Assembly: GCA_965228735.1 (NCBI GenBank) | Contig: OZ245838.1 | Span: 1,696,001 to 1,760,000 of the forward strand | From: Planctomycetota bacterium | GTDB lineage: Bacteria > Planctomycetota > UBA1135 > UBA2386 | Direction: 5' to 3' | DNA: 64,000 bases | Part shown: positions 24,604-44,117 of the stretch, piece after piece | How the letters are laid out: each line of letters begins with the position of its first letter | Position numbering within the stretch: position 1 is the first letter of the stretch | The notes under the pieces: generated by a model | The model's database searches: none | The model's input: only the letters and a program-made list of their open reading frames with translations | Told to the model about the DNA's origin: nothing | Translations under genes and position numbers: made by a program

Positions 24604-24680
24604 CGGGCCGTAGCGCAGTCTGGTAGCGCACCTGGTTTGGGACCAGGTGGTCGGAGGTTCGAATCCTCTCGGCCCGACCA
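24604..24680 (+). tRNA. tRNA-Pro (anticodon TGG)
   Basis: CGGGCCG acceptor stem, D-arm TAGCGCAGTCTGGTAGCGC, anticodon arm CCTGG-TTTGGGA-CCAGG, GGTTCGAATCC T-arm, encoded CCA. Confidence 0.98.
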
Positions 24681-24763
24681 ATCTCAATCTGCTGAACGAC
24701 CCGCGTTCGCGACGAACCGCCCTCTGAGGCGAGCGGCAGCCTGGACCCAAGGAGATCGGGACT

Positions 24764-24904
24764 GTCTCGAGCAAGGCTCGCGCCCCCCGCCAGAGCCTGC
24801 AATCCACGGGTCAGTGGCGCGTTCGATTCGACGGCCGCGCCTTCTACCTCGGCACCGACGAGGATGCCGCGATGGATTGGTTCCATGAACTGCGTCAGCA
24901 ATGA
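24764..24904 (+). pseudogene. Remnant of a tyrosine-integrase N-terminal DNA-binding region
   Basis: Translates VSSKARAPRQSLQSTGQWRVRFDGRAFYLGTDEDAAMDWFHELRQQ*; GQWxVxxDGxxxYLG resembles planctomycete integrase N-termini; located right after the tRNA. Confidence 0.55.
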
Positions 24905-24969
24905 AAAGCCGGCGCGCTCCCGACCCCCAGTGCGAGGAGCCGGATCGCCGGGTCCACCGCCAAGATCCC

Positions 24970-24995
24970 TGTAAGGCGGCAGTCGGCACTCCGTC
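24970..24995 (+). promoter_or_regulatory. Putative ECF promoter TGTAAG-N16-CGTC upstream of copZ
   Basis: Same motif and spacing recur at 25324 and 28289. Confidence 0.65.
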
Positions 24996-25024
24996 CGCGG
25001 GGTCGTTCCAACCCAAGATTCGAG

Positions 25025-25300
25025 ATGACAGATCCAACGACTGACAACGACCCCAAGACCACGCTTCTCACGATCGGAGGCATGACGTGTGGCGGCTGCG
25101 TCCGCCGCGTCCACGACGCCCTTGCCGGCCTCCAGGGTGTACGAAACGTCGCGGTTCACTTCGCCCGAAAGGAAGCCGTGGTCACCCATGATCCGAGCGT
25201 CCTCGCAGCCGACCTCGTGCAGGCAATCGGCAACGCGGGCTACGAGGCATCGGGAGCGCCCCCGACTGCAGACCGGCACGATCGCGCACTGCCTGAGTGA
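25025..25300 (+). CDS. copZ: Copper chaperone, HMA domain
   Basis: GMTCGGCV metal-binding motif, 91 aa, directly upstream of a P1B ATPase. Confidence 0.9.
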   Translation: MTDPTTDNDPKTTLLTIGGMTCGGCVRRVHDALAGLQGVRNVAVHFARKEAVVTHDPSVLAADLVQAIGNAGYEASGAPPTADRHDRALPE

Positions 25301-25323
25301 CACACCGCTGCCGCCGCGATTCG

Positions 25324-25357: not shown

Positions 25358-27643
25358 ATGACTACGCTACTTGCCGTGTCCGCGCCCGAGGAGCGGACGG
25401 TTCTCGACCTCACTGGCATGACCTGCGCTGCCTGCGTCGTTCGCGTGGAGCGAGCGATCCGCAAGGTGGCCGGCGTCACCGACGTCGCGGTCAACCTGGC
25501 GACCCAACAGGCTTTGGTGGCCTTCGAGGCCGGGCGAACCACGCGAGCGGGAATCACGAGCGCCATCGAGGGCGCCGGCTACGGAGTCCTGGCGGAGCCA
25601 CAGGCCGCGGCGGCAGTCGACCGCTCGGAGCACGAGCGCCAGGAGCGGCGATCGCTCCAACGGGACCTTCTCGTCGCCGGCGCGGCAACGCTCCCCCTGC
25701 TGGTGTTGGGGATGTCCCACGGTGCGCTGCCGTTCGCCGAGACCGACGCCGGCCGCACGCTCCAGTTCGCGCTCGGCTCGATCGTCCTGTTCGGGCCCGG
25801 CCGTCGCTTCCTGCGGGGCGGCCTGACCGCGCTACGTCACGGAAGTCCCGACATGAACACCCTCGTGTCGCTCGGCGCGGCCGCCGCCTGGCTGTGGTCG
25901 ACGGTCGCCACATTCGCGCCGTCCTGGTTCACGCACGGCGCGCACGAGGCCCCGCACGTGTACTTCGAGGCCGCCGGCGCGATCATCGCGTTCGTCCTGT
26001 TCGGCAAGTTCCTCGAGTCGCGCGCCCGCTGGCGCCTGGGTGACGCGGTCCGCGCCCTTCACGCCCTGGAGCCCGCGGTCGCGCACCGAATCGACGACCT
26101 CGAGGAAGGCACCGACGTTGACGTGCCCGTCGCGTCGTTGCAGCCTGGGGATACGGTCCGGGTGCGGCCCGGAGAGCGGGTTCCGGCGGATGGCGTCGTC
26201 ACGGACGGCGAGTCGGCGCTCGACGAGTCGATGCTGAGCGGCGAGAGCGTGCCGATCGACAAGGCCATCGGCAACCAGGTCGTCGGCGGCAGCATGAATA
26301 CCACCGGGGTCCTGCTCGTGCGGATCCAGCGCACCGGTGCGGAAACCGCGCTTTCGCGGATCACGGCTGCCGTCGAACAGGCTCAAGGCAGCAAGGCGCC
26401 GATCGCCAGGTTCGCCGATCGCGTGAGCGCCGTCTTCGTTCCAATCGTGTTGGGTCTTGCGCTGATCACGTTCGCCACCTGGTGGCTGCTCGACCCAACG
26501 TGGACCGGCGTCGCCACGGCCGTCGAGTACATGGTCGCCGTGCTGGTGATCGCCTGCCCATGTGCGCTCGGCCTGGCCACCCCGGCTGCGGTCGCCGTCG
26601 GCGCCGGCCGAGGCGCAGAACTCGGCGTGCTGTTCCGGACCGGTGCGGCACTCGAGGCGGCGAGCCACATCGACGCGATCTACCTCGACAAGACCGGCAC
26701 GCTGACCAACGGCCGCCCGTCGCTCGTCGCCATCGAACCGCACCCGGGCACAACGGAGGAGCAGCTGTTACGCGAAGCGGCTTCGATCGAACGGGGCAGC
26801 GAGCACCCGTTCGCCCGCGCCGTGGTCGATGCAGCCCGCGAACGGGGTGTCCGGCTGGCCATCGCCCATGACTTCGCCGCCATCCCCGCGATGGGCGTGC
26901 GCGGCAGAGTCGAAGGCGCGGAAGTGCTGGTCGGCAAGGCCGATTGGCTGGCCGAGCAGGGTATCGACGTCGCGCCCGCAATCGCCGCCGGCAGCGAGCT
27001 GGCAGACCGCGGAGTGACGCCACTGCTGGTCGCCCGCGACGGCCACCTGAGCGGGGTGCTCGGGGTTGCCGATGAGCTGCGGATCGATGCCGCCGATGCG
27101 GTTCGGCAGCTGCGTTCGGCAGGCGTTCGGGTCGGCATGTTGACCGGCGACCGGCGAGCCGTTGCCGACGCGGTCGCGGGCGACCTCGGTCTCGATGAGG
27201 TCGCTGCAGAGCTGCTCCCCGAAGACAAGGCGGAGCGAATCCAAGTGGCTCAGGCCGAAGGACATCGGGTGGCAATGGTCGGCGATGGCGTCAACGACGC
27301 TCCGGCCCTGGCCGTCGCCGACGTCGGGATCGCGATCGGCACCGGGACCGACGTCGCCGCCGCGGCCGCGGACGTCGCGCTGCTCCGAGGTGGGATCGCC
27401 GGTGCCCCAGTCGCCCTCGGGCTGGCCCGCGCGACGATGCGGACCATCCGTCGCAACCTGGTCTGGGCCTCGGTCTACAACGTGCTCAGTATCCCCGTCG
27501 CTGCCGGCGCTCTGTCGGGGCTGGGCGTCGGCCTGTCGCCGGTGTATGCCAGCGCCGCGATGTCCCTCTCGAGCGTGTCCGTCCTCCTCAGCAGTCTGCT
27601 TTTGCGGCGCTTTCGCGTCGCCAACGCAACAGGTGTTCGATGA
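25358..27643 (+). CDS. copA: Copper-translocating P1B-type ATPase
   Basis: MTCAAC, YFE, CPCALGLATP, DKTGT, SEHP, GDGVNDAP, YN and MSLSS motifs. Confidence 0.97.
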   Translation: MTTLLAVSAPEERTVLDLTGMTCAACVVRVERAIRKVAGVTDVAVNLATQQALVAFEAGRTTRAGITSAIEGAGYGVLAEPQAAAAVDRSEHERQERRSLQRDLLVAGAATLPLLVLGMSHGALPFAETDAGRTLQFALGSIVLFGPGRRFLRGGLTALRHGSPDMNTLVSLGAAAAWLWSTVATFAPSWFTHGAHEAPHVYFEAAGAIIAFVLFGKFLESRARWRLGDAVRALHALEPAVAHRIDDLEEGTDVDVPVASLQPGDTVRVRPGERVPADGVVTDGESALDESMLSGESVPIDKAIGNQVVGGSMNTTGVLLVRIQRTGAETALSRITAAVEQAQGSKAPIARFADRVSAVFVPIVLGLALITFATWWLLDPTWTGVATAVEYMVAVLVIACPCALGLATPAAVAVGAGRGAELGVLFRTGAALEAASHIDAIYLDKTGTLTNGRPSLVAIEPHPGTTEEQLLREAASIERGSEHPFARAVVDAARERGVRLAIAHDFAAIPAMGVRGRVEGAEVLVGKADWLAEQGIDVAPAIAAGSELADRGVTPLLVARDGHLSGVLGVADELRIDAADAVRQLRSAGVRVGMLTGDRRAVADAVAGDLGLDEVAAELLPEDKAERIQVAQAEGHRVAMVGDGVNDAPALAVADVGIAIGTGTDVAAAAADVALLRGGIAGAPVALGLARATMRTIRRNLVWASVYNVLSIPVAAGALSGLGVGLSPVYASAAMSLSSVSVLLSSLLLRRFRVANATGVR

Positions 27644-28233
27644 ACTGCCACGGGCCTGATCCGGGCTCGTCGAGCGGCCTTTCGGAGCACGTGATGCACG
27701 AGTTGGTCGAGCTGCACCGCGAGTTCCTCGGCTTCGTGGAGCGCCGCGTCGGCGACCGGGCACTCGCCGAAGACCTCGTGCAGGATGCCTTCGTGAAGAG
27801 CCTCGAGCGGGGTGGCGAGCTACGCGACGACGAGTCGGCGCGAGCCTGGTTCTACCGGGTGCTGCGCAACGCCATCATCGACCGACAGCGGCGCACGAGT
27901 AGCGACAGTGGTCGGCTATTGAAGCTGGCAGGCGAGTTGAAACGGGCCGAAGAAGACCGCTCCGCAGCCGCCGACCGTGAACTCTGCCAGTGCGTCGCGC
28001 GCCTGATCGACACGTTGCCGTCCGACCAGGCCACGGTCCTTCGCCGGATCGAGCTGGACGGCATCCCGGTCAAGCAGTTCGCCGCCGAGTCGGGCATCGG
28101 CGAGAGCAACGCGGGCGTGCGCGTGTTCCGCGCCCGCAAGGCCTTGCGCGAGCGGGTTACGCGCTCCTGCGGCACCTGCGCCGAGCACGGTTGCTTCGAT
28201 TGCTCCTGCGGCAGCCAAGAGCCGCACGCCTGA
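27640..28233 (+). CDS. CorE-like metal-responsive ECF sigma factor with a CxC motif and a Cys-rich C-terminus
   Basis: AEDLVQDAF, AWFYRVLRN, LCQCV, C-terminal CGTCAEHGCFDCSC; overlaps the copA stop; no anti-sigma adjacent. Confidence 0.88.
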   Translation: MNCHGPDPGSSSGLSEHVMHELVELHREFLGFVERRVGDRALAEDLVQDAFVKSLERGGELRDDESARAWFYRVLRNAIIDRQRRTSSDSGRLLKLAGELKRAEEDRSAAADRELCQCVARLIDTLPSDQATVLRRIELDGIPVKQFAAESGIGESNAGVRVFRARKALRERVTRSCGTCAEHGCFDCSCGSQEPHA

Positions 28234-28288: not shown

Positions 28289-28314
28289 TGTAAGGAGCGG
28301 GGATCGGCTCCGTC
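28289..28314 (+). promoter_or_regulatory. Putative ECF promoter TGTAAG-N16-CGTC upstream of the YHS-TolC-MCO operon
   Basis: -35/-10 boxes and spacing identical to 24970. Confidence 0.65.
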
Positions 28315-28395: not shown

Positions 28396-29103
28396 ATGTT
28401 CGCCAAGCTCCCGCTGCTCTTCCTGACCGCTGCCGTCTCCGCCCAACCGCCCTCGGCGTCGCAAGGCCCGGCTCCCCGGGACGCCGCTCCGACGGTCACC
28501 GCCCCGACCTACCCGAACTCGACATGCCCGATCATGGGCAAGAAGGCCTCGCTGCCGCTGTTCGCGGACACCGAGTTCGGCCGGATCTACGTGTGCTGCA
28601 AGCCGTGCATCCGCAAGGTCCACGCCGACGTCCAGACGGCCTACGAGACCGCATACCCCGCGACCAAGGACCTGCCGAACAAGGTATGCCCGGTATCCGG
28701 GGAGCCGATCGGCAAGCAGGCTGCCTCGGTCCTCCTGCAAGGGATGCGAATCCAGCTCTGCTGCGAGGGTTGCCTCGCCGAAGCGAGACAACACGCGCAA
28801 GTCACCCTCACGAAGGCACACGATCCGAAGATCGAGGATCTCCGGAACCAGCGATGCCCGGTCGACGGCCAGCCCGTCCAACCGAACGCGTTCGCGGTCA
28901 TCGGCGCGACCGTCATCCGGCTCTCCGCGCCGTCGCATCTGGCCCGAGTGCAGAAGGAGCCACAGGCGCAGCTCGACAAGGCGCGTGCGGATCGGAAGAC
29001 AGACGGTCCGAAGCCCGAACACCGGCATCGGCCGGGGTCGCAGCCGGTGAAGATCGTTGTCGGCACGCAAGCCGCGCCATCAACAGGCAAGGAGGGCAAA
29101 TGA
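28396..29103 (+). CDS. Exported Cys-rich protein with three YHS/TRASH-like repeats
   Basis: Signal peptide; NSTCPIMG..CCKPC, NKVCPVSG..CCEGC, NQRCPVDG (third repeat lacks CCxxC). Confidence 0.75.
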   Translation: MFAKLPLLFLTAAVSAQPPSASQGPAPRDAAPTVTAPTYPNSTCPIMGKKASLPLFADTEFGRIYVCCKPCIRKVHADVQTAYETAYPATKDLPNKVCPVSGEPIGKQAASVLLQGMRIQLCCEGCLAEARQHAQVTLTKAHDPKIEDLRNQRCPVDGQPVQPNAFAVIGATVIRLSAPSHLARVQKEPQAQLDKARADRKTDGPKPEHRHRPGSQPVKIVVGTQAAPSTGKEGK

Positions 29104-29279
29104 GCCATAGTCGTCATGCCGCGCGCTGGCTCGCGGCGTTCTTTCTCGCCAGTTGCACCGCGAGCCCACCCATGCCCGACCCCCCTTCGGACCACCCAGC
29201 TTCGGTGAAGAGCGAAAGCTCACCACGCGCGCCCCGATCCGAAGCCCTGTCGATTCCTGATCCGGAGAACAAGCGATGA
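29100..29279 (+). CDS. Small lipoprotein with DHPAS motif
   Basis: GGAGG RBS, ATGA overlaps at both ends, lipobox FLASC; motif shared with 35259-35546. Confidence 0.75.
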   Translation: MSHSRHAARWLAAFFLASCTASPPMPDPPSDHPASVKSESSPRAPRSEALSIPDPENKR

Positions 29280-30709
29280 GATCCCCGGCAATTCTCTCGG
29301 CGACCGTCCTCGCAGGGCTCGCCGCCTGCACCAACGTCGACGCGACTCACCGCACATCGACACTCGAGGTGCAAGGCGCCCTCGCGACCCGGACCGGATT
29401 CGCGCCGGATCGGCGCGCGGATGACTCGGATGCCGTGATCCGCGCGGCCGTGGACGAACTGCTGCGCAACGACCTGACCGAGGAGAACGCCGTGCGCATC
29501 GCCTTGCTCAACAACCACGATGTACGCGCTGGCTACGAACGGCTCGGCATCGCGGCAGCCGACCTCGTAAGGGCCGGGCTGCTGCGCAATCCGGTGTTCG
29601 GTGGCGAAGCCCTGCTGGGCTTCGGCGGCGGAACCGAGATCGCCCTGGGCCTGGCGCAGCCGTTCGTCGACCTGTTCTGGCGTCCGCTGCGCCAGCGCGC
29701 GACCGAGCACGAGCTTCAGGCCACAGTCGCGTCAGTGACTCGCGAGCTCGTGGAGCTGACCTTCAGAGTTCGCCGCGAACTGGTGCGGGTGCGCACGGCC
29801 GCGCAGTTGGTCACCTCGCAGCGACGTTCATTGGCCGCGGCGCAGGCCGCGCACGAACTCATGCAGACGCTCGCCAACGCTGGCAATGTGGTCGGCGCGC
29901 AGTTGTCCTCCGCGCGCCTCGCGGAGGCACGTGCCCGGTTCGATCTGGCGGACGCCGAGCGGGCCGCCATCGAAGTGCGTGAACCACTGAACTCACTGCT
30001 GGGCCTTTGGGGCAGCAGCATCGCCTGGCGCGTGGCGGAAGCCGCGGCGTCTCCAGCTTTCGACCCCGGCGAACGGCCTCCCGTCGAATGGGGTCAGGTC
30101 GAAGCACGAGCGATCGGGGCCAGCCTCGCCCTGGTCGAGAACCGGGCCCGCATCGACGCGGCGGCCCAAGGTGCGCAGATCCGATCGTGGTCTCGCTGGC
30201 TTCCCGACGCCGTGATCGCGGTGTCGGCACGGCGAGATGTGTCGGGTCCGGAAGCGCTGGGCCCGGCGCTGGCCGTGGAGCTCCCGGTCTTCGACGACGG
30301 CAGTGCCGCGACCGCCGCTGCCCGTTCACGAGTCAGGCTGCTCATGCATCGCCACGCGCAGATCGCCATCGAGGTGCGAGCCCTCGCGCGCGTGCTTGCT
30401 GAGCGCAGCGATCGCATTGAGGCACGAGCGCGTTTCACCGAGCTGGTGTACTTGCCGGCCCAGGACCGCCTGCTGCATGAAACGATGCAGAACTACAACG
30501 CGATGCAGATCGGCGCCTTCGACGTCATCGCGCAGAAACTCCGCCAGCTCGAAGCGGTCCGCGAGGCCCTCTTGGCCTCGAGCGATGCTCGTTTGGCACG
30601 CCTGGACCTCGAGGAACTGCTGGCCGGAGGCCAATCCCGAGGCGTCACGACACCCGCTCTGTCGACCGGCAACTCCCGTCCGGACGACAGCAACCGAGGA
30701 GAACACTGA
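29276..30709 (+). CDS. TolC-family outer-membrane efflux lipoprotein (copper oxidase-associated)
   Basis: Lipobox LAAC, AVRIALLNN, AGLLRNP, YNAMQIGAFD. Confidence 0.9.
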   Translation: MRSPAILSATVLAGLAACTNVDATHRTSTLEVQGALATRTGFAPDRRADDSDAVIRAAVDELLRNDLTEENAVRIALLNNHDVRAGYERLGIAAADLVRAGLLRNPVFGGEALLGFGGGTEIALGLAQPFVDLFWRPLRQRATEHELQATVASVTRELVELTFRVRRELVRVRTAAQLVTSQRRSLAAAQAAHELMQTLANAGNVVGAQLSSARLAEARARFDLADAERAAIEVREPLNSLLGLWGSSIAWRVAEAAASPAFDPGERPPVEWGQVEARAIGASLALVENRARIDAAAQGAQIRSWSRWLPDAVIAVSARRDVSGPEALGPALAVELPVFDDGSAATAAARSRVRLLMHRHAQIAIEVRALARVLAERSDRIEARARFTELVYLPAQDRLLHETMQNYNAMQIGAFDVIAQKLRQLEAVREALLASSDARLARLDLEELLAGGQSRGVTTPALSTGNSRPDDSNRGEH

Positions 30710-32079
30710 TGAAAAGCAACCGACGACAGTTCTTTGCCGGATCCGTACTGGCCGGCTTCGCGGGCATGTTGCCTGTCTCTCTTGCCAACCCCCAGTCCCC
30801 GGCGAACGGCGCGCCGCCGCCCGGTTTACCAGGTGTGCACTACCGGCCCGTCGAGGTCCCGGATGGTGTGGTCCTGCCGTGGCGCATCGTCGACGGTGCG
30901 AAGGTGTTCCATCTGACGGCCGAAGAGGTCGAGCACGAGTTTGCGCCGGGTCTCACGACACGCTGCTGGGGCTACAACGGCCGCGTGCACGGCCCGACCA
31001 TCGAGGCGGTCGAGGGCGACCGCCTACGCATCTACGTGACCAACCGCCTGGACGTCGCCACTTCCGTGCACTGGCACGGCTTGCTCCTGCCGAACGGCAT
31101 GGACGGCGTCGCCGGCCTGACGCAGCGTGCGATCGAGCCAGGCGAGACGTTCCGCTACGAGATCACGCTGCGGCAGCACGGCACGTTCATGTTCCACTCG
31201 CACCACGACGAGATGACGCAGATGGCGCTCGGCATGATGGGCATGTTCGTCGTGCATCCGCGCGAGCCGCAGGGACCGCTGCCCGACCGCGACTTCGTCT
31301 ACATGATCGGCGAATGGTCCGTGCGGCCCGGCATGCGTCGCCCGGACCCCAACGAGATGACGGACTTCAACGTCCTGACGCTGAACGGCCGCGTCTTCCC
31401 CGGGACATCGCCGATGGTGGTGAAGACCGGGGATCGCGTGCGGGTTCGCATCGGCAACTTGAGCGCGATGGACCACCACCCCATGCACCTGCACGGACAC
31501 GCGTTCGAGGTCGTCGAGACCGACGGCGGCAGGGTGCCGGTGACTGCGCGGTGGCCAGAGACGACGGTTCTGGTTCCGACGGGGTCGACCCGGACATTCG
31601 AGTTCGTCGCGGATGCGGCGGGCGACTGGGCGTTCCACTGCCACATGACGCACCACGTGATGACCCAGATGGGGCATGGCATGCCCAACTTGATCGGCGT
31701 CGATCCGAGCCTCTTCGACCAGAGGCTCGCCGAAGTCGTGCCGGAGTTCGCCGCGATGGGGCACACCGGCGGACACCACGGGGAAGACACGACGATGCCG
31801 CCCAACAGTCTGCCGATGATGGGCGGGACGGCTGGATTCGGCTACGTCACGATGGGCGGCATGCTGACGGTGCTGAAGGTACGCGACCGGCTCACGGATC
31901 ACGCCGATCCGGGTTGGTTCGGGCATCCGGACGGCACCGTCGCGCGACCCGCGTCTGCGGCGGAACTCGAGCAGGATGGAGTCCGAGTCGGACATGGCGA
32001 CCCGCGCTCCGACACGCGCCGCGATCCCCATTCCGGTTCGATCGACAGCCCGCTCGAATGGCGCGAACAAAGGCGGTAG
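30709..32079 (+). CDS. Two-domain multicopper oxidase, Tat-exported, with Met/His-rich tail
   Basis: NRRQFF; HWHG, HSHH, HPMHLHGH, HCHMTHHVMTQM. Confidence 0.95.
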   Translation: MKSNRRQFFAGSVLAGFAGMLPVSLANPQSPANGAPPPGLPGVHYRPVEVPDGVVLPWRIVDGAKVFHLTAEEVEHEFAPGLTTRCWGYNGRVHGPTIEAVEGDRLRIYVTNRLDVATSVHWHGLLLPNGMDGVAGLTQRAIEPGETFRYEITLRQHGTFMFHSHHDEMTQMALGMMGMFVVHPREPQGPLPDRDFVYMIGEWSVRPGMRRPDPNEMTDFNVLTLNGRVFPGTSPMVVKTGDRVRVRIGNLSAMDHHPMHLHGHAFEVVETDGGRVPVTARWPETTVLVPTGSTRTFEFVADAAGDWAFHCHMTHHVMTQMGHGMPNLIGVDPSLFDQRLAEVVPEFAAMGHTGGHHGEDTTMPPNSLPMMGGTAGFGYVTMGGMLTVLKVRDRLTDHADPGWFGHPDGTVARPASAAELEQDGVRVGHGDPRSDTRRDPHSGSIDSPLEWREQRR

Positions 32080-32284: not shown

Positions 32285-33601
32285 CTACACGTCGATGCCA
32301 TCTCGTCGACGATCGTCCTCCGACGCGGGGCCGGCGACGGTGCCTTCCGGGTGCGCGAACCAACCCGGATCCCGATTCGCATCGAGGTCCTCGTCCGACA
32401 GCCCTGCCCGCACCTTCAGAACCCCGGCCATGCCTCCGAGGCTGATGTTCTCGCCGAACCCACCTTCGGCCTTGACCATGGGCACGCTGTTCTCGGGCAA
32501 CGGCATGCCGCTGTCGGTCATGTCCCCCATGCCCTTCGCCCCCATCGTCATGTAGCCCGGCAGCACCGATCGAACTCGGCGGTCGAAGCCCTTCGCATCG
32601 AAGCCGATCATGTTGGGGAACGCGTGGCCCATCTGCGTCATGACGTGATGGGTCATGTGACAATGGAAGGCCCAGTCACCCACGTTGACGGCATCGAACT
32701 CGATGTCGCGGGTCTCCCCGACACCGACCAACGTCGTCACGCGGCGCCGCTGCTGTTCGTCGGGAATGCGGCAGCCGTCGATCGCCGTCTCCAAGAACTC
32801 GTAGCCATGGAGGTGGATCGGATGGTGATCCATCGCCGAGAGGTTGCCGATTCGCATCCGCACTCGCTGCCCCTTGCGCACGACCAGCGGATCCAGGAAC
32901 GGGAAGACCTTGCCGTTCATCGTCAGGACGTTGAAGTCGCTCATCTCGTTCGGGTTCGGCCGGCGCGCACCGGCGTCGATACGCCACTCGTGCAGCATCA
33001 GCGCGAAGTCGCGGTCGACCGGCGCGCTCGCGCCGTCAGCCGGGTGGATCACGAACATGCCCGTCAGGCCCATGCCCTCCTGCGTCATCGTGTCGTGATG
33101 GCTGTGGAACATGTGGGTCCCGTTCTGGCGTAGCTCGAACTCGTACAGCCACGTCTCCCCGGGCGGGATCGGGGGCTGCGTCAAACCACTCACGCCGTCC
33201 ATACCGTTGGGCAGGATGAGACCGTGCCAGTGCGTCGAGGTCGGAGCCGGCAGCTTGTTGGTGACGTAGATGCGCACGCGGTCACCCTCGACCGCCTCGA
33301 TCACGTGACCGTTCACCATCTTGTTGAAGCCCCAGCACCGGGCCACGAGCCCCGGCGCGAACGTGTGCTCGAACTCTTCGACGACGAGGTGATAGACCTT
33401 GGCCCCGTCGACGTTCCGCATCGGCGCCTTGCTGCCGCTGGGGACGATGACCGGTCGATGGTCCCGTGGATGCGCCCCCCCCGCGCACGGCCGCCGCAAG
33501 TCGCGTCGGATACTGCGCGCGCTCGCACGCTCGGCAGCCGTCAATGCGGCCGCTGCGCCGGCGGCAGCGCCAGAGAACAGGAAATTGCGTCGGGTACTCA
33601 T
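32285..33601 (-). CDS. Two-domain multicopper oxidase paralog, Tat-exported
   Basis: TRRNFL; HWHG, HSHH, HPIHLHG, HCHMTHHVMTQM. Confidence 0.95.
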   Translation of the reverse strand: MSTRRNFLFSGAAAGAAAALTAAERASARSIRRDLRRPCAGGAHPRDHRPVIVPSGSKAPMRNVDGAKVYHLVVEEFEHTFAPGLVARCWGFNKMVNGHVIEAVEGDRVRIYVTNKLPAPTSTHWHGLILPNGMDGVSGLTQPPIPPGETWLYEFELRQNGTHMFHSHHDTMTQEGMGLTGMFVIHPADGASAPVDRDFALMLHEWRIDAGARRPNPNEMSDFNVLTMNGKVFPFLDPLVVRKGQRVRMRIGNLSAMDHHPIHLHGYEFLETAIDGCRIPDEQQRRRVTTLVGVGETRDIEFDAVNVGDWAFHCHMTHHVMTQMGHAFPNMIGFDAKGFDRRVRSVLPGYMTMGAKGMGDMTDSGMPLPENSVPMVKAEGGFGENISLGGMAGVLKVRAGLSDEDLDANRDPGWFAHPEGTVAGPASEDDRRRDGIDV

Positions 33602-36190: not shown

Positions 36191-39100
36191 TCAGGCCTGC
36201 TCGGACCGGGAAGGAGAGGCCGAGAACCGCAAGCGCAGCTCCTCGACCAACGCATAGAGCACGGGCACGACGAAGATCGTGACGACCGCCACGAGCATCC
36301 CACCGAAGGACGGAATCGCCATTGGCACCATCACGTCGCTGCCCTTGCCGGTGGAGGTCAGGACCGGAAGGAGCGCGAGAACGGTGGTCGCAGTCGTCAT
36401 CAGACAAGGGCGAATCCGGCGCTTGCCGGCAACGACCACGGCCTCACGGATCTCATCCACGTTCGTCGGTCGCCGCCGCTTGAAGCTCTGCTGCAGGTAG
36501 GTGCTCATCAACACGCCGTCGTCGGTCGCGATGCCGAAGAGCGCGAGAAAGCCCACCCAGACCGCCACGCTCAGGTTGATCGGCGAGACCTGGAACAGTT
36601 CGCGCACGTCGCGACCGAGAACCTCGAACGAGAGGAACCAGTCCTGACCGTAGAGCCAGAGCATCAGGAAGCCTCCCGACCACGCAACGAAGACCCCGGT
36701 GAAGACGAGCAGCGTCGTCGATACTCGCCGGAACTGCAGGTAGAGGATCAGGAAGATGACGAACAGTGCCAAGGGCAACACGATCCTCAACCGCTCCGTT
36801 GCGCGGACCTGGTTCTCGTAGTTGCCCGCGAATCGATAGCTCACACCTGCCGGCAGCTCGAGCTCACCCTCTTCGAGCTTCCGCTCCAGGAAGCGGCGAC
36901 AGTCCTCGACCACTTCGACTTCCGCGAAACCCGGATTCTTGTCGAAGATCACGTAGCCGGTCAGAAACGTGTCCTCGCTCTTGATGGTCTGCGGCCCGGG
37001 CTTGTAGCGCACCTCGGCAAGCTGGCCGATCGGAACTTGGGTCCCGTCCTTTGCTGCAACGAGGATTCGCTCCAGTTCGTCGATGCGGTCCCGCAACTCG
37101 CGCTGATAGCGCACCCGCACCGGGTATCGCTCACGCCCCTCCACGGTCGTCGTAATCCGGCGCCCTCCGATCGCGACCTCGATCACGTCCTGCACATCGC
37201 GCACGTGCAGCCCGTAGCGGGCGATCGCCTCACGGTCGATCTCGATCTCCAGGTAGGGCTTGCCAACGATTCGATCCGCCGAGACGGTCGCTGCGTTGAC
37301 CGACGGAACTTGCTGCAGCAGCTTCTCGATATCGACGCCGACTCGCTCGATCGTCGCGAGGTCCGGGCCACGCACCTTGATGCCGAAAGGCGCGCGCATG
37401 CCGGTTTGCAGCATGATCCGCCGCGTCTCGATCGGCTGCAGCATCGATGCCGTCGTCATGCCCGGAACCTCGGCAGCCTTCGCGACCTCGTCCCAGATGT
37501 CGTCGGGAGAACGAATGTGGTCGCGCCACTGTCGGAACGGCCGGCCGTCGTCATCGGGCACGAGCCGCCCAGCCTCATCTCGAACGAACTCGCTCTGGTC
37601 CGAGTCGTAGGCGAAACGCATCAAGTCGCCACGGGCATCGAGCCGGTACTCCGGCACGTAGTTGATGACGGTCTCAACCATGCCGACCGGCGCAGGGTCG
37701 AGGGCGCTCTCCGCACGGCCGATCTTGCCGACGACGTCCTGCACTTCCGGAACTGCTCGAATGCGTCGATCCTGGACCTGGAGCAGTTCGAGAGCTTCGC
37801 CGATCGATGCGTGGTACATCGTGATCGGCATCAGTAGAAACGAGCCCTCGTCGAGGCGAGGCATGAACTCCTGCCCAAGGCCCGGGAAGGCGTGCGCCAG
37901 ACCAGACCACGCCCTCGAGGCCTTGAGTTCGTCCGACGTCATGGCCCGTGTCTCCGTATCGGAGACCCAACCCGCGACCGACATCCCTGCTCTGCTCACG
38001 GCTGAGATGGTGTCGGGCACGAACGCGAACACGCGCCCGAAGCCGAACCAGATCGTCGCACCGAGCAGACACAAGAATGCAGGAGCAGTCAGGAAGACCA
38101 GTTTGTGCGCGAGGCACCACCGCAACAGCGGCTCGTAAGCCCACTGCACCAAGCGGAAGAACAGCAGGAATCCTCCAACCAGGACGAGCGTGAAGACGAC
38201 GTTGCCGACCGACTGCTCGGGCCCGAGCGGCGCCCAGGTCGATGCCAGCAGCACGCCGGTTGCAATCGCCAGCAACGCATTCACGCCCCAACGCAGGGCG
38301 GCTGCCATACCGTCCGGCATGCGACGCTGCACTTCTCTCCAGGTGAACAGGGCCGCAACGACAGCTGCCGCCCACCAGGCAACGAGCCACCCGAGGAGCA
38401 CGACTGCGCCGAGGACGGTCGCGGCGCGCGCGCGCCCAACCGTCCTGCCGCGCCCAACCGGAAACAGGAGGTGAGCGACCGGCGGAATGATCACGAGCGC
38501 GACGACGATCGATGCCAATAGTGCAAACGTCTTGGTGAACGCCAACGGCCGGAACAGCTTCCCTTCCGCGCCTTCCATCGTGAAAACTGGCAAGAAGCTC
38601 ACGACCGTCGTCAGTACCGCGGTCAGCACGGCCGAGCCGACTTCGCTGGCACCCGCTTGGATCGCGTCCTTGCGCTCCTTCGCTGTGTCGTTGGGGCGGA
38701 TCTTCCCGAGGATGCTCTCGCAGATGACCACGCCCATGTCGACCATCGTGCCGATCGCGATCGCGATCCCCGACAACGCGACCACGTTCGCATCGACACC
38801 GAACTGCTTCATCGCGATGAAGCACATCAACACCGAGAGCGGGAGCAGTCCGGAGATCAGCCCCGCGCTTCGCAAGTGCGCAATCATCAGCAGCACCACG
38901 AGTATGGTGACGAGAATCTCATCTCGTAGCGCGTCGTTGAGCGTCCCGAGCGTCTCCTGAATCAACCCGGTGCGGTCGTAGAACGGCACCACGCGCACTT
39001 GCGAGATGGTGCCGTCGTCCAAGGTCTTGCGAGGCAGACCGGCCTCGATCTCCTCGACGCGCTCCTTGACCCGCTGGATGACCGCGAGCGGGTTGGCGCC

Positions 39101-40045
39101 ATAGCGCACGACGACCACGCCACCGACCGCCTCGGTGCCGGCCTTGTCGAGCGCGCCTCGCCGCAGTGCCGGTCCACGGCCCACGGTCGCAATCTGCTTG
39201 ATCGTGAGCGGTACGCCTTCGGCACCGGTCACGGCGATCTTCTCGATGTCCTCGACTCCGCTGAGGAAGCCGACCCCACGAATCACGTACTCCGCGCGGT
39301 TGACCTCGATCGTCCGAGCACCGACGTCGCTGTTCGACATGCGAACAGCCGCGAACACCTGGTTGAGCGTTACGCCATGCGCCCGCATCGCATCAGGATC
39401 GACATCGATCTGATACTCGCTGACGTAGCCGCCGATGGATGCCACTTCAGCTACGCCGTCGACGCCCGCGAGGTTGTAGCGCACGTACCAATCCTGGATC
39501 GTGCGCAACTCGTGCAGGTCCCAACCGCCAGCCGGCGCCCCATCCGGCGTGCGTCCTTCCAGCGTGTACCAGAAGACCTGGCCGAGTGGCGTCGCATCCG
39601 GGCCGAGCGTCGGCTGCACTCCTTCCGGGAGGGTCCCGCGCGCCAAGCTGTTGAGCTTCTCGAGCAGTCGCGTGCGCGACCAGTAGAACTCCACGTCGTC
39701 GTCGAAGATGACGAAGATCGACGAGAACCCGAGCATGGAGCTGCTACGGATCGTCTTGACACCAGGGACCCCCAGCAGGGCGACGGTCAGAGGGTAGGTG
39801 ACTTGGTCCTCGACGTCTTGCGGCGACCGCCCAGGCCAGGATGTGAAGATGATCTGTTGGTTCTCGCCGGTATCGGGGATCGCATCCACCGGGACCGGCG
39901 ACCGCGGAACGCCCTCGATTTCCCAGTCGAACGGGGCCACCAGCACGCCCCACGAAGTGACCAGGACAAACAGCAGGCCAACGACAAGCTTGTTGTCGAG
40001 GCAGAACCGCAGGAGACGATCGAGCAAGCTCGGGCGGTCGCTCAC
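36191..40045 (-). CDS. cusA: CusA/CzcA family heavy-metal efflux RND permease
   Basis: VDAIPD, WPGRSPQDVEDQVTYPL, GPDATPLGQVFWYTL, AIAIGTMVD, RIRPCLMT; Met-rich. Confidence 0.96.
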   Translation of the reverse strand: MSDRPSLLDRLLRFCLDNKLVVGLLFVLVTSWGVLVAPFDWEIEGVPRSPVPVDAIPDTGENQQIIFTSWPGRSPQDVEDQVTYPLTVALLGVPGVKTIRSSSMLGFSSIFVIFDDDVEFYWSRTRLLEKLNSLARGTLPEGVQPTLGPDATPLGQVFWYTLEGRTPDGAPAGGWDLHELRTIQDWYVRYNLAGVDGVAEVASIGGYVSEYQIDVDPDAMRAHGVTLNQVFAAVRMSNSDVGARTIEVNRAEYVIRGVGFLSGVEDIEKIAVTGAEGVPLTIKQIATVGRGPALRRGALDKAGTEAVGGVVVVRYGANPLAVIQRVKERVEEIEAGLPRKTLDDGTISQVRVVPFYDRTGLIQETLGTLNDALRDEILVTILVVLLMIAHLRSAGLISGLLPLSVLMCFIAMKQFGVDANVVALSGIAIAIGTMVDMGVVICESILGKIRPNDTAKERKDAIQAGASEVGSAVLTAVLTTVVSFLPVFTMEGAEGKLFRPLAFTKTFALLASIVVALVIIPPVAHLLFPVGRGRTVGRARAATVLGAVVLLGWLVAWWAAAVVAALFTWREVQRRMPDGMAAALRWGVNALLAIATGVLLASTWAPLGPEQSVGNVVFTLVLVGGFLLFFRLVQWAYEPLLRWCLAHKLVFLTAPAFLCLLGATIWFGFGRVFAFVPDTISAVSRAGMSVAGWVSDTETRAMTSDELKASRAWSGLAHAFPGLGQEFMPRLDEGSFLLMPITMYHASIGEALELLQVQDRRIRAVPEVQDVVGKIGRAESALDPAPVGMVETVINYVPEYRLDARGDLMRFAYDSDQSEFVRDEAGRLVPDDDGRPFRQWRDHIRSPDDIWDEVAKAAEVPGMTTASMLQPIETRRIMLQTGMRAPFGIKVRGPDLATIERVGVDIEKLLQQVPSVNAATVSADRIVGKPYLEIEIDREAIARYGLHVRDVQDVIEVAIGGRRITTTVEGRERYPVRVRYQRELRDRIDELERILVAAKDGTQVPIGQLAEVRYKPGPQTIKSEDTFLTGYVIFDKNPGFAEVEVVEDCRRFLERKLEEGELELPAGVSYRFAGNYENQVRATERLRIVLPLALFVIFLILYLQFRRVSTTLLVFTGVFVAWSGGFLMLWLYGQDWFLSFEVLGRDVRELFQVSPINLSVAVWVGFLALFGIATDDGVLMSTYLQQSFKRRRPTNVDEIREAVVVAGKRRIRPCLMTTATTVLALLPVLTSTGKGSDVMVPMAIPSFGGMLVAVVTIFVVPVLYALVEELRLRFSASPSRSEQA

Positions 40046-41991
40046 TTGCCACCCTCCGCCCGCGTCTCACCCACCGGTCCAGCGACGGGCAAGAACTCAC
40101 TCCGCGCCTCGCCGCAGACAAGCATCGCGGCGCCGAAGTACGGATTGTGAATCGTGCCCTTCGGCTGCAGCCAGGCCGCCCCCTTGTCATCAAAGGCCAT
40201 GGGGCAATACGCCTCGATCCAGACAGCTTCGCCGACATGGCCGAACATGCGCTCCAACGCCAGCACGTCGCGCGCGAGCGCTTCAAACGCCACCCGCATG
40301 GCCACGATGTCACCGGCATCCTGCATGGCTGACAGCGCCGTGGCCAACGAGGCCCGTTCGTCCTGCCACCGCTCCCGCGCAAGCCCCGCAAGCGCTTCGT
40401 CCCTGACGCCCGGGAGAGCAGCCACGAGGGCCGCGAGTTGCACGCGAGCGGTGTCGAAGTCATCGTCGCCGAGCGCTTTGGCTACGCCGAGGTACGACTC
40501 GTAGATCGCAGCCAGTGAAGCGCGGAACACCGTGGTCTCCGATCCAGTCCACCGCTCCGCCTCACCAGCCTGCGACATCATGCTCGGCTTGGCCTGGATC
40601 TGCATCGCACTGTCGAGGCGAAACGCCCCATTCACGACTACCAGCTCATTCTCCCGGACGCCCGAGCGCACGATGTAGTCGTCGCCGGCCCGCGGACCCA
40701 GCACGACCTCGCGACCCTCGAAGGTCGGGGCGTCGCCCTTTCGGACCTGGACGTAGACGACTCCGCGCTTGCCGGTCACCAGGACAGCAGTCGAAGGCAC
40801 GAGCAAGGGCTTCGGCGCGTCCTCATCAACGGCATAGCCGAGCTGCTCCGCGGGCACGAGGTCCATACCACAGACGTCGCAGGTGCCAGGACCATCCTTC
40901 ACGACCTCGGGATGCATCGGGCTGATCCACTTGCCCGCGAGACGCGAGTCCAGGACGGTTCCTCCGTCACCGATACGGGAGCGCACGACGCCTCGCACGA
41001 ACATGCCGGGCTTGAGCCGGGCGGACTTGTTCTCGACATCGACACGAACCGCGACGGTGCGGGTCCGCTCGTCCACGACCGGCGCGAGGAACGAAATGCG
41101 CCCCTCGAACGACTCGCCCGGAAGAGCTTCGGCGAACAGCGTCACGCTCTGTCCGTATCGCAGCCAGGGCAGATCCTGCTCGTACGCCGCGAGTTGCACC
41201 CAGACCTTGCTGAGGTCGGCGATCCGATACACGGCCACGCCTTCCTTGACGTAGTCACCTTCGTTCTTGTGCTTCTCGATGACGACGCCACTGACCGGTG
41301 AGCGAATCAACATGTGATCCTCTGCCGCCCCTCTGGCCTCGACTCCGTCGACCTGCGCTTCGGTTAGCCCCCAAAGCACGAGCTTCTCGCGCGCCGCGCG
41401 ATAACTCCGCTCGCTGCTCTCCTTCAGGAAATCGCTCGTCGAATCGGTCGCCTCGTCGATCCGCTTCTTGGCTTGCAGCAGCTCCTGCTGAGCGACCAGC
41501 AAGTCCGGGCTGTACAGAGAAACCAGGTGGTCCTCCCGCTGCACGGCAATGCCTGTGTAGTCGACATAGAGCCGGTCCAGCCGACCGGCGACGCGGGCGG
41601 CAACGGATCGCACCCGCGTCTCGTCGAAGTCGATCTTGCCGACCATCCGAATCGGCATGGTTGCGAAAGACCGTCGCACCGGCTGCGTCTGGATCTGGGC
41701 GAGCTCCGCCGCCTCCGCAGACAGCTTGATCCGATTGGGCCCCGGATCGTCGCCGGGCACCTTTGGCACCAGATCCATGCCGCACTTCGGGCAAGGGACG
41801 TTGGACGGCAACACGACCTCAGGATGCATCGGGCAGGTCCAAAGCGTCGGGCTACCGCCGCCCCCGCCTGCGGGCTCAGCCGAGTCTGGACCAGGCGAGT
41901 TCGGCCACCAATCGGTGCTGACGCGGCCGACCAGAACGGCCAACAGCACGACGCCGAGCAAGGCGAGAAACAACGCGATCTGGCGAATCAT
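40042..41991 (-). CDS. cusB: CusB-family RND periplasmic adaptor with heavy-metal-binding domains and a C-terminal DUF3347-like domain
   Basis: WTCPMHPEV..CPKCGMDLVP, LYSPDL, RLKPGMF, SPMHPE..CDVCGMDL, YCPMAF..NPYFG..MLVCG. Confidence 0.93.
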   Translation of the reverse strand: MIRQIALFLALLGVVLLAVLVGRVSTDWWPNSPGPDSAEPAGGGGGSPTLWTCPMHPEVVLPSNVPCPKCGMDLVPKVPGDDPGPNRIKLSAEAAELAQIQTQPVRRSFATMPIRMVGKIDFDETRVRSVAARVAGRLDRLYVDYTGIAVQREDHLVSLYSPDLLVAQQELLQAKKRIDEATDSTSDFLKESSERSYRAAREKLVLWGLTEAQVDGVEARGAAEDHMLIRSPVSGVVIEKHKNEGDYVKEGVAVYRIADLSKVWVQLAAYEQDLPWLRYGQSVTLFAEALPGESFEGRISFLAPVVDERTRTVAVRVDVENKSARLKPGMFVRGVVRSRIGDGGTVLDSRLAGKWISPMHPEVVKDGPGTCDVCGMDLVPAEQLGYAVDEDAPKPLLVPSTAVLVTGKRGVVYVQVRKGDAPTFEGREVVLGPRAGDDYIVRSGVRENELVVVNGAFRLDSAMQIQAKPSMMSQAGEAERWTGSETTVFRASLAAIYESYLGVAKALGDDDFDTARVQLAALVAALPGVRDEALAGLARERWQDERASLATALSAMQDAGDIVAMRVAFEALARDVLALERMFGHVGEAVWIEAYCPMAFDDKGAAWLQPKGTIHNPYFGAAMLVCGEARSEFLPVAGPVGETRAEGGK

Positions 41992-43385
41992 CGACTTCCT
42001 CCGATCAGAGCTTCCAGTCTGGCGTGACTCTGATAGTGGTCGCGACACGCACGCCAGTAGGCAGTCTCGAACTGCAACAGGGCTCGCTCGCTGTCAATCA
42101 CCTCGAGCAGTGTCGAAGAACCCGCTGTGTAGGCAGCTCGCGTGACTGCAAGCGCCTCGCGAGATCTGGTCAACAGGGTGTCGCGATACAACACCACCTG
42201 GCGAGCCGCGTCCTCGAGCGCGAAAGCCGCCGCTTCGATCTCCGCCCTCAGCTTGGCGCGGTAGTCCTCGAACTCGGCCGTTGCCGCCCGAATCCCTCGC
42301 TCGGCCTCTCTCTCGGCGGCGTCGTAGCGGCCACGCCAGATGGGCAACGTGAACCCCACTCGCAAAGCCCAAGGATCATCGCCGCTTCCTCGTGTCGGCA
42401 TCAGTGCATCGTCCGTCTCGAGATAATCGACTCCGATCTGGAAGTCGGGCCACTTGTCCATGGCAGCAAGTCGGAGACGACGCTCGAACGTCTTGGCGCG
42501 CTCTGCGAGTTGGCGCAGACGCGGGCTGTTCTCGGTCGCTCGCTGCATCAGGGCGGCCGAGTCAACCGACGCGAGATCAGGTTCGCTCAGCTCGGGCAGA
42601 GGCAGGTCGGCTGCGCCCCTCCAGTTCATCGCAGCCGCGAGGCGCGAGCTCAACGACGGGCGCACACGCTCACGCGATTCGAGATCGTTCTCGACCCTGC
42701 CGATCTCGACCTGAAGGCGCAGCAGGTCGGCCTGCGTAGCTCGCCCAGCAGCGACCCGTTCTTGCAGCACGGCTTCCAGCTGCCTCAACAGCTCGAGGAC
42801 ATCGCGCGTGATCCGGATCACGTGCGACAGATAGGCGTATTCCGCGTAGTGCACGGCGACGTCGCGCTCCACCTCCAGGTGCTTCTGCACGACGACATGC
42901 CAGAGTTCTTCAGACTGCCCCCGTGCGACGTCGCTACGCAGATCGAGCTCCCCAAACCAGGGGAATGCCTGCGTAAGGGAATAGCGCCGTTGCTGCGGCC
43001 CAGTTCGCGTCTGAACCTCCTCGACGAACTGCGCGAACGTGAATTGCGGGTCGGGCAGGGACCCTGCCTGCGCCACCCGCTCAGCGCCCGCGAAGAACCG
43101 CTCGTAGGCGGCACGCAATCCCGCGTTGTGGTGCAATGCATACCGAACGTAGACAGTCAGGTCCGCCGATTGCCGCACCTGCGCCTCGGAAGGAGCAGGC
43201 GCCGCTCGACCCTCGCGGGCAAGACCGCTGCCAGAGCGATCCAGCCGTGAGCGCAGGCTCGGCGCCCTCATCGCGTCGAGGCGCGAGTCCCACAGACTCT
43301 GGTCGTAGGGCGTACCGCAGGAAGCAACGATCGCAGCTGCTGCTGCCAGACCGGCGAACCGCCGGCGGGGTTTCACGGAATTCAT
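41988..43385 (-). CDS. TolC/CusC-family outer-membrane efflux lipoprotein
   Basis: VASC lipobox, AGSLPDP, LTQAFPWFG, LPIWRGRY, LLEVIDSER; first gene of the CBA operon. Confidence 0.92.
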   Translation of the reverse strand: MNSVKPRRRFAGLAAAAAIVASCGTPYDQSLWDSRLDAMRAPSLRSRLDRSGSGLAREGRAAPAPSEAQVRQSADLTVYVRYALHHNAGLRAAYERFFAGAERVAQAGSLPDPQFTFAQFVEEVQTRTGPQQRRYSLTQAFPWFGELDLRSDVARGQSEELWHVVVQKHLEVERDVAVHYAEYAYLSHVIRITRDVLELLRQLEAVLQERVAAGRATQADLLRLQVEIGRVENDLESRERVRPSLSSRLAAAMNWRGAADLPLPELSEPDLASVDSAALMQRATENSPRLRQLAERAKTFERRLRLAAMDKWPDFQIGVDYLETDDALMPTRGSGDDPWALRVGFTLPIWRGRYDAAEREAERGIRAATAEFEDYRAKLRAEIEAAAFALEDAARQVVLYRDTLLTRSREALAVTRAAYTAGSSTLLEVIDSERALLQFETAYWRACRDHYQSHARLEALIGGSR

Positions 43386-43494
43386 GGTCAGACCTGTCGG
43401 AAGGAGCAGTTCACACCGCGTCCATCCGCGGTGCAGAATCGGCGCGAAACGCACCGACCGGCCTCGTCGTCCCGCGACGGGCCGGCTCCACCGA

Positions 43495-43944
43495 CTAGAT
43501 CAGGAAGACCTCGAACAAGACGTACAGCGGCGGTCCCGTGCACCGCTGCTGCGTTTCATGACCAGCCCCAACAGACCGGGCCGCCGGGACTGGCCATTCG
43601 AAGTCTGCGCCCGCGGTTGGGGGCGAGACGGCAAACGAGGCATCCCCGCCGTCCTTTGGATCGACGGATCTCGGTCCCTGCTCTTCGTCACCGCAGCCGC
43701 AAGGCTCGCCGTCGTCATCTCCTGCGCCCGAACCATCACTCTCGCCGTCACGTTGCTCCGTCTCGGCAACGTCGTCGCGACAGCAACTCGTCGCACCGCC
43801 ATCCTCGTCGCCGGCCTCGAGGCTGATGCAGCAACACTGGACCTCGCCAGACTTGAGCATGCAGACCCAGCTCACCGGACCAGGCAACGTCATGATCGCG
43901 ACGAGCAGCGCTAGCAGGCTCGTCACGATTCGGCGCGCAGGCAC
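43495..43944 (-). CDS. Cys-rich exported small protein ending GPPLYVLFEVFLI (DUF2946/CutF-like leader ORF)
   Basis: Hydrophobic N-terminus, CCC/CC/CGC clusters, xGPP near the C-terminus; upstream of cusCBA; GTG start inferred. Confidence 0.6.
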   Translation of the reverse strand: MPARRIVTSLLALLVAIMTLPGPVSWVCMLKSGEVQCCCISLEAGDEDGGATSCCRDDVAETEQRDGESDGSGAGDDDGEPCGCGDEEQGPRSVDPKDGGDASFAVSPPTAGADFEWPVPAARSVGAGHETQQRCTGPPLYVLFEVFLI

Positions 43945-44072
43945 GTTGCGGGCGATCAAAGGCACTCGCTGGGAGCCTAGCCCACGTAGATGGCCGTGAC
44001 AACCCGCGCCAGGTCCGAAACCGTGCCGACCCACGCCATCCGCGGCACTTCGCCGCGCGCGTTCCACAGCGC

Positions 44073-44117
44073 TTTGGGACCAAGTGGTCGGTGGTTCGCA
44101 TCCTCTCGGTCCGACCA
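44073..44117 (+). repeat. attR: degenerate copy of the tRNA-Pro 3' 45 bp
   Basis: TTTGGGACCAAGTGGTCGGTGGTTCGCATCCTCTCGGTCCGACCA vs 24636-24680; 4 mismatches. Confidence 0.92.

Follow-up and report, generated by a model that had tools for sequence, protein, structure and literature searches.

A cis-mobilizable element (CIME) is a unit flanked by attachment (att) sites that are still able to recombine, and such units accrete in tandem at att sites. Islands at tRNA genes include those that use attachment subsite A, and the Islander search for them requires an integrase (PMC4383910). Among copper-responsive regulators, alanine at position 185 of the sigma factor CorE selects copper over cadmium and zinc (PMC4937300; PMC3107203), and the commonest neighbours of CutF-like leader open reading frames (ORFs) are genes for CusC-type outer-membrane efflux proteins (OEPs) (PMC9973294). 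We found no literature specific to planctomycete tRNA-Pro islands or copper islands. Here we analyse a stretch of 64,000 nucleotides from a Planctomycetota bacterium (assembly GCA_965228735.1, contig OZ245838.1, positions 1,696,001 to 1,760,000), referred to as the window, and conclude that it probably holds a degenerate tyrosine-integrase island at tRNA-Pro(TGG), with a copper cargo that is intact and mosaic. Positions are those of the window unless given for contig C1 of the host genome, G000.

The tRNA-Pro repeat and the integrase stub

The reading of the locus as an island turns on three features:

24604..24680, plus strand: tRNA-Pro(TGG), called by ARAGORN and Rfam; its 3' 45 bp, 24636-24680, are the left att copy
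24773..24976, plus strand: tyrosine integrase stub, the N-terminal ~70 codons, with a stop codon at 24902-24904 and no clear start; core and catalytic domains absent
44073..44117, plus strand: displaced 3' half of tRNA-Pro, the right att copy, with 4 substitutions

The 45-bp repeat had been reported in a preliminary description of this DNA, and we found it again with an E value of 1.6e-11 when searching against the 7.19-Mb single-contig genome. The right copy lies downstream of the tRNA in the same orientation and runs to the tRNA 3' end; upstream of the repeat, the two sequences are dissimilar. Placed on the cloverleaf, the 5' end of the repeat is the first base of the anticodon loop, and a 7-bp overlap in the loop is identical between the copies. 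Of the substitutions in the right copy, two disrupt pairs, one in the anticodon stem and one in the T stem; a third falls at T-loop position 58, and the last leaves a G-U wobble. The T-stem change is also present in the tRNAs of three relatives, always with a compensating change, and the right copy, with its broken stems, therefore appears to have decayed after it ceased to be tRNA. Rfam found no RNA in the window besides tRNA-Pro(TGG). That the repeat might be an assembly artefact, as the preliminary description allowed, is countered by contigs from four runs of four studies, one of which may be the source of the assembly, that hold the same letters at 44073-44117; a 92-kb contig of run X7 covers both repeats.

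In the host genome there are nine tRNA 3'-end copies of at least 37 bases at true tRNAs (doubtful tRNA calls and 20-22-base matches were excluded), of which eight are 97.5-100% identical and the right copy, at 90%, is the most decayed. By its letters it is the oldest-looking att in this genome, although its age holds only relatively. The preliminary description had proposed an old acquisition by a tyrosine-integrase island whose att site decayed while the cargo was kept; the stub and the decayed repeat bear out the second part, and 'old' stands only in relation to the other copies, given the 95% interval of 2.5-21% on 4 substitutions in 45 bases, a mild composition shift, and differences between strains. 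Three relatives also have 45-bp copies that are perfect and begin at this loop base, four in total: one each in G002 and G064 and two in G056.

Further copies of tRNA ends were observed in passing. In the host, tRNA-Pro(GGG) is the site of a 44.7-kb element (C1:5178114-5222919) whose tyrosine integrase is intact and whose 45-bp repeat is perfect. Copies of 3' ends also accompany tRNA-Ala, -Leu, -His, -Met, and -Gln on C1; four of them, 20-22 bp long, follow tRNA-Met at 4.75-4.81 Mb, where several integrases are close by. Behind tRNA-Pro(TGG) in G017 and G012 (L019 and L021), tandem repeats of ~90 bp include the last bases of the tRNA and are not accompanied by an integrase.

Ninety bases past the tRNA, the interval 24758-24904 matches four database proteins, two of which are full PF00589 integrases. 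The stub is 84% identical over 90% of the query to one of these, P0001 (E 1.9e-14), and in a tblastn search P0001 residues 7-77 align to 24773-24976 at 65% identity, straight through the stop codon. The remainder of P0001 has no further match in the window, a Pfam search with the stub alone gave no match, and the similarity to integrase stops where the copZ promoter starts. We agree with the earlier statement that the island holds no intact integrase or transfer gene: the genome has 24 PF00589 matches, with none between C1:1720680 and 1778500, and no relaxase or conjugation gene was found among the island ORFs scanned with Pfam and NCBIfam, with 92.5% of the island DNA accounted for. The stub itself had gone unmentioned, as had the transposable element, the two promoter motifs, and the leader ORF at 43495-43959 that are described below.

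Integrases related to P0001 are frequently found at proline tRNAs. The closest full-length match in the host is the intact integrase at tRNA-Pro(GGG), 40-41% identical, and the eight best P0001 matches in 91 family genomes are 40-44% identical; tRNA-Pro neighbours five of these eight and tRNA-Ala one, with no tRNA in the locus examined for the other two. Behind tRNA-Pro(TGG), an integrase or remnant is present in five of the nine relatives with readable DNA (G001, where the remnant was read by eye from a short DNA match only, G002, G008, G013, and G064) and absent from G004, G006, G012, and G017; the contigs of three more relatives, outside these nine, end at the tRNA.

Several findings together make an immobilised island likely: the repeat begins at the loop start and has decayed, an integrase stub remains, the cargo is uninterrupted, its distribution is patchy, and its left module recurs in a tRNA-Pro array of another genus. 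A tyrosine integrase would have inserted the island at the anticodon loop of tRNA-Pro(TGG), restoring the tRNA and moving the host's own 3' half to 44073-44117, where it was free to mutate, and a deletion ending near the copZ promoter would have taken the rest of the integrase. With most of its integrase gene lost, the island is likely unable to excise itself now.

It is conceivable that the unit is instead a living, non-autonomous element, akin to a CIME, that another tRNA-Pro integrase, resident or incoming, excises in trans or carries in cis. The unaltered 7-bp loop overlap would permit this, the intact tRNA-Pro(GGG) integrase of the host is a possible helper, and in genome G075, of another genus, the corresponding module sits in a unit without its own integrase, between repeat copies with conserved arms. 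However, the right copy, the genome's most decayed, has one change only four bases off the overlap; no convincing arm-binding motif is common to both ends or to the ends in relatives (one 11-mer with 2 mismatches was found, with ~0.05 expected per 100 nt); and no contig joint between the repeats was listed in eight runs, where contigs drop rare forms and only some joints are visible. We consider continued mobility of this kind improbable.

Copper cargo and its predicted control

Between the repeats, 15 ORFs make up 17,933 of the 19,392 bp of the island without interruption. Pfam and NCBIfam support the earlier statement that nearly all of this DNA is related to copper or heavy metals: the genes encode a heavy-metal-associated (HMA) chaperone, a Cu-type P1B ATPase, an extracytoplasmic function (ECF) sigma factor, three OEP/TolC proteins, two multicopper oxidases, CusA, and CusB, and there are five small ORFs besides. 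The Atlas clusters nearest to two island proteins are commonest in Planctomycetota. We divide the cargo into three modules, of which module A extends from copZ to the first oxidase:

24970..24995, plus strand: predicted ECF promoter TGTAAG-N16-CGTC, ahead of copZ-copA-sigma
25025..25300, plus strand: CopZ-like HMA chaperone (Pfam/NCBIfam)
25358..27643 (start possibly 25328), plus strand: CopA, Cu-type P1B ATPase (TIGR01511, 559 bits, cut-off 397)
27640..28233, plus strand: CorE-like ECF sigma factor, with CxC linker and C-terminal CxxCAxxxCxxCxC
28289..28314, plus strand: second TGTAAG-N16-CGTC motif, ahead of yhs-lipoprotein-OEP-oxidase
28396..29103, plus strand: exported Cys-rich protein, YHS/TRASH-like as a lead only (E 0.059; Atlas 0.90, recognition below the bar)
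29100..29279, plus strand: small putative lipoprotein, 78% to G075
29276..30709, plus strand: outer-membrane factor (OEP/TolC) 1, by domain match
30709..32079, plus strand: two-domain multicopper oxidase 1, with twin-arginine leader and Met/His-rich tail

CopA has the motifs CxxC, CPC, DKTGT, YN, and MxxSS, and both oxidases of the island have twin-arginine leaders and complete-looking His/Cys/Met ligand motifs. Contigs from an activated-sludge metagenome (run X16) hold most of module A, corresponding to 26178-31979, at ~90% identity.

The sigma factor has the linker motif CQC between sigma2 and sigma4, which fits the CxC criterion of CorE-like ECF factors (ECF44), and its C-terminal cysteines have the spacing of CorE Cys181/184/189/192/194, that is, the four invariant cysteines and the equivalent of Cys189. 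Its neighbourhood is metal-related, with no linked anti-sigma factor, and its best NCBIfam model is SigZ, below the cut-off. From the alanine at the position of CorE 185, we predict that it is activated by Cu(II). Planctomycetes do not appear in the available parts of the phylum lists for CorE-like and ECF238 factors (PMC3107203, section 12; PMC4937300; supplement of PMC7826278), nor does TGTAAG appear in the examined part of the PMC7826278 supplement.

The motif TGTAAG-N16-CGTC occurs twice in 7.19 Mb, before copZ and before yhs. Because other spacings of the same motif are also rare (0-8 copies genome-wide), its weight lies in placement and conservation. In counts that include the window and its kin, the strict motif is found upstream of 6 of 14 yhs loci and 4 of 10 copA loci, with shuffles giving 0-0.005; with one hexamer mismatch allowed, these values rise to 10/14 and 9/10, where ~0.003-0.006 is expected per upstream region. 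In the minus-strand half of the island, no sigma-type motif was found at 2+1 mismatches, save one match inside an ORF region, and the motif thus appears to serve only the two plus-strand operons, which form the left half. The preliminary description of a 'complete, self-regulated' copper system was in this respect an overstatement, and another part of the host genome carries a metal region of greater size. In the proposed scheme, the CorE-type sigma factor would be switched on by Cu(II) in the cytoplasm and would transcribe copZ-copA-sigma and yhs-lipoprotein-OEP-oxidase from these promoters; Cu(I) would reach the periplasm by way of CopZ and CopA and be turned into Cu(II) by the oxidase.

Module B is encoded on the opposite strand and contains a miniature inverted-repeat transposable element (MITE):

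32285..33601, minus strand: two-domain multicopper oxidase 2, 58% to oxidase 1 and tail to tail with it
33642..33805, no strand assigned: MITE, 160 bp between two CTAG copies, with 37-bp terminal inverted arms
33802..35259, minus strand: outer-membrane factor (OEP/TolC) 2, by domain match
35259..35510, minus strand: small putative lipoprotein with His/Met-rich tail, 68% to G002

The assignment as a MITE is based on the terminal inverted repeats, a target duplication, three further copies in the genome (97, 93, and 88% identical), and an empty site in G002, which has a single CTAG there. The X7 contig omits exactly 160 bases at this point, indicating that the insertion varies between strains. 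Module B would provide a second lipoprotein-OEP-oxidase set, and in some strains a predicted long hairpin in the MITE (z -8.2) would part its last two genes, OEP2 and oxidase 2. We found no autonomous partner with the same ends, as no further end pair is present in the host genome at 4 mismatches. The inner part of the MITE resembles a shorter dispersed repeat (74-82%) at C1 2252448, 2965196, 2991346, and 3273879. Next to the MITE, X7 differs from the window at 12 sites within 120 bp, with four more in module B; at nine of these 16 sites X7 agrees with G002, and at two it is the window that agrees with G002, which suggests a recombination patch in module B of the X7 strain. The island is fixed yet not frozen: strains still differ inside it.

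Module C comprises a cusCBA operon and the ORF that precedes it; the first entry below is a small ORF that lies between modules B and C:

35801..36142, minus strand: small putative lipoprotein with CGC motif, DUF6370-like (lead)
36191..40045, minus strand: CusA RND (resistance-nodulation-division) pump (TIGR00914 over cut-off; Met573/623/672 of E. coli CusA conserved)
40042..42048, minus strand: CusB adaptor with HMBD and DUF3347 domains, by domain match
41988..43454 (true start probably further downstream), minus strand: CusC-like outer-membrane factor, by domain match
43495..43959, minus strand: Cys-rich 154-aa leader ORF, CutF-like, with hydrophobic N-terminus and near-invariant C-terminal GPP tail

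Across six homologues of 54-72% identity, the last 23 residues of the leader are almost invariant, and similarly built ORFs lie upstream of 7 of 10 other cusC-like matches. There is a PP within the last 15 residues, and the next same-strand gene begins less than 1000 nt downstream; the N-terminus was judged hydrophobic by eye, and the length of 154 aa compares with a CutF filter of <150 aa. Of the marks of CruR, neither a DUF2946 match nor CxxC nor RAPP was found in this ORF. The RNA around its stop codon folds better than shuffled sequences (z -4.05). A longer ORF, 43495-44118, was set aside as the leader in favour of the 154-aa form, its start falling inside the antisense of the tRNA fragment. 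CusCBA would pump out periplasmic Cu(I)/Ag(I), probably under translational control by the leader.

Relatives and the history of the cargo

We compared the locus with relatives, judging relatedness by a sigma tree and by pairwise distances. The preliminary description had proposed to look for an empty site in which tRNA-Pro adjoins the gene at 44165-45370; G001 and G002 do not have one. In G001, a 90% complete genome of the same genus, neither oxidase 1 nor, at 1e-30, the sigma finds a match (the best CopA and CusA are 44% and 32%); other DNA lies behind the tRNA there, and the orthologue of 44165-45370 is at another locus. This gene, just past the repeat, encodes a family-less putative lipoprotein; its 69% orthologue in G001 lies where G000 has a 122-bp gap, so the gene has moved in one lineage. 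Synteny with G001 resumes ~38 kb out, and the right border therefore rests on the repeat. The 38 kb beyond the repeat contain no further att copies or integrases and are host-like in GC (0.697), for which reason we do not count them as island. Within this variable zone, at 47047-53467, are an ECF sigma factor, a small protein, a CHAT-domain protein, and an FG-GAP protein.

The nearest relatives of the three modules differ. Module A shares 6,955 bp (25048-31976) at 83.5% identity with G075, where the module belongs to a tRNA-Pro(GGG) array; protein identities between the two genomes are 83-91% for CopA, sigma, OEP1, and oxidase 1, compared with 80-82% for RpoB/RpoC. In an unrooted tree of 35 sigma sequences, drawn without a species tree, G000 and G075 are paired (100/99) and near-identical sigmas are found in five genera. 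Module B is 82-87% identical to G002 (91% at the amino-acid level), where it stands behind another ATPase-sigma operon, and for module C the nearest relatives are G019/G040, with amino-acid identities of 46-70%. By these comparisons the cargo is a mosaic of three modules, which is at odds with the single acquired unit of the preliminary description. A mosaic might also mean that the copper genes were gathered by recombination inside an older, small island, so that repeat and cargo have separate histories, and the end of integrase similarity at the copZ promoter and the strain-level patch in module B would accord with this. Nevertheless, the joints between modules show no insertion-sequence ends or second integrase, the divergence of the modules (0.3-0.55) exceeds that of the repeat (0.09), and a mosaic is equally expected if the modules joined in a mobile pool before integration. 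We regard later gathering as unlikely, though with an appreciable chance of being correct.

One could likewise propose that the copper cluster was inherited vertically and that the tRNA fragment next to it is due to chance or artefact, since composition is near that of the host and homologues are common in the order (the sigma factor, at 1e-30, in 41 of 251 genomes). The E value of the repeat, its exact start at the loop, the integrase stub, the absence from G001, and the contigs of four studies largely refute this explanation, which we consider very nearly negligible. The difference in GC that the preliminary description suggested computing is present, 0.669 in the island (0.648 in the cus part) against 0.694, but it is mild.

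Several observations weigh against the interpretation as a degenerate, acquired island and should be set beside the evidence for it. No clean empty site was found in any relative examined, and G001 synteny returns only far beyond the repeat; no intact element combining a P0001-type integrase with this cargo was found in searches of genome contigs and metagenome contigs. In composition the island is within the range of the genome: it ranks at the 7th percentile of equal windows for GC, and for tetranucleotides it is in the top 7.5%. Relative to G075, copZ (60%) and yhs (75%) fall below the RpoB/RpoC identity, and distances at four-fold sites are 0.30-0.39 (copZ 0.50) against 0.29-0.34 for rpoB/rpoC, hence not smaller; a recent transfer is therefore ruled out, and ancient vertical inheritance followed by losses is conceivable. 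The predicted -35 element reads AAG here and AAC in the CorE paper (PMC3107203), and all gene functions and regulation described are predictions from sequence. With these points taken into account, we still hold the degenerate island at tRNA-Pro(TGG) to be the likely explanation.

Related loci were seen elsewhere. The G075 array (C1:1031191-1077993; L095, L092-L094) has one integrase by tRNA-Pro(GGG) and seven 3'-half copies, from identical to clearly decayed; its outer units have no integrase match and have in common flanks of 100-220 bp, 71-92% identical, on either side of the repeat, and one unit holds the copper module. In four more genera or species, tRNA-Pro(GGG) 3'-half copies lie ~2 kb or less from copA-sigma (G080:C13, G093:C8, G078:C30, and G077:C38; L100, L102, L111, and L129), and three of these four loci have a 97% identical 130-bp arm. 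In the host itself, a tRNA-Gly(CCC) array (C1:489189-643706) with three 3'-end copies and two integrases holds a heavy-metal region of ~110 kb, including ATPases (three more of the P1B type), oxidases, several RND pumps, a 58% CusA, and a second CorE-like sigma (a 40% paralogue), with TGTAAC-N16-CGTC at 600862; the island is therefore not the cell's sole copper system. On the other side of the tRNA, on the minus strand, a 984-aa ORF (17614-20568) encodes Big_2 Ig-like domains and contains, at 18227-19906, a 276-bp unit repeated five to six times in tandem; it stands beside an ECF sigma factor fused to carboxypeptidase-regulatory-like domains (20340-23348).

Comparison with described systems

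As an island, the locus is ordinary: metal-resistance cargo fixed at a tRNA once the integrase was lost. Its predicted copper-control layout is unusually readable, and it supplies a promoter consensus that can be tested and a large natural series for copper-sensing sigma factors of the CorE type, in a lineage unlisted for them in the available parts of the relevant sources (PMC3107203, PMC4937300, PMC7826278). It also supplies a leader ORF, almost invariant in its tail, that is a candidate copper sensor. It also suggests that uncultured relatives pass metal-resistance modules between genera via several tRNA-Pro sites. We can speculate further, with only a slim chance of being right, that copper modules are exchanged family-wide at proline tRNAs, in integrase-less, att-flanked units (this island included) that tRNA-Pro integrases excise and stack in trans. 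On this view the units would carry a portable copper switch of two tiers: in the cytoplasm a CorE-type sigma would act through TGTAAG-N16-CGTC promoters of its own, and a leader that stalls ribosomes would govern the Cus pump of the periplasm.

Among the systems described, the CorE regulon of Myxococcus xanthus (ECF44/ECF238) is close in the CxC linker, the C-terminal cysteine spacing, Ala185, and the lack of an anti-sigma factor (PMC3107203, PMC4937300), and in its classes of neighbours, namely an HMA protein, a P1B ATPase, an outer-membrane efflux protein, and a multicopper oxidase (PMC3107203). In contrast to CorE, the island sigma lacks a cysteine at the CorE 206 position, and its predicted -35 element differs as noted (PMC3107203); ECF238 factors are described as not autoregulated (PMC7826278), whereas the island sigma lies in an operon behind its own predicted promoter.

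The cus genes resemble CusCBA of E. coli in the CusA/CzcA family assignment over cut-off, the three binding methionines, the presence of CusB and an outer-membrane factor, and the order C-B-A; they differ in that the island CusA is a protein of 1,284 aa that contains insertions, the adaptor CusB includes HMBD/DUF3347 domains, and neither CusF nor CusRS is present among the island ORFs. The leader shares with CutF/CruR-like leaders a short Cys-rich ORF, a hydrophobic N-terminus, PP in the last 15 residues, and a position upstream of a CusC-type OEP gene; it departs from them in exceeding the length filter, in having CC/CxC and not CxxC/CxxxC clusters, in its tail GPPLYVLFEVFLI in place of RAPP, and in giving no DUF2946 match, and stalling is putative (PMC9973294, PMC9426467).

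As in Islander tRNA islands, the tRNA is restored, a displaced 3' fragment lies downstream in the same orientation, the crossover is at the anticodon loop, so that the repeat geometry corresponds to attachment subsite A, and an integrase gene is beside the tRNA; unlike them, the integrase here is a stub that would fail the Islander integrase filter, and the fragment has 4 substitutions (PMC4383910). Each part of the island has a known counterpart. With CIMEs, the island shares the form of an att-flanked unit that has no working integrase or relaxase; it differs from them as a single unit in which an integrase stub remains, with the loop overlap intact and the flanks decayed.

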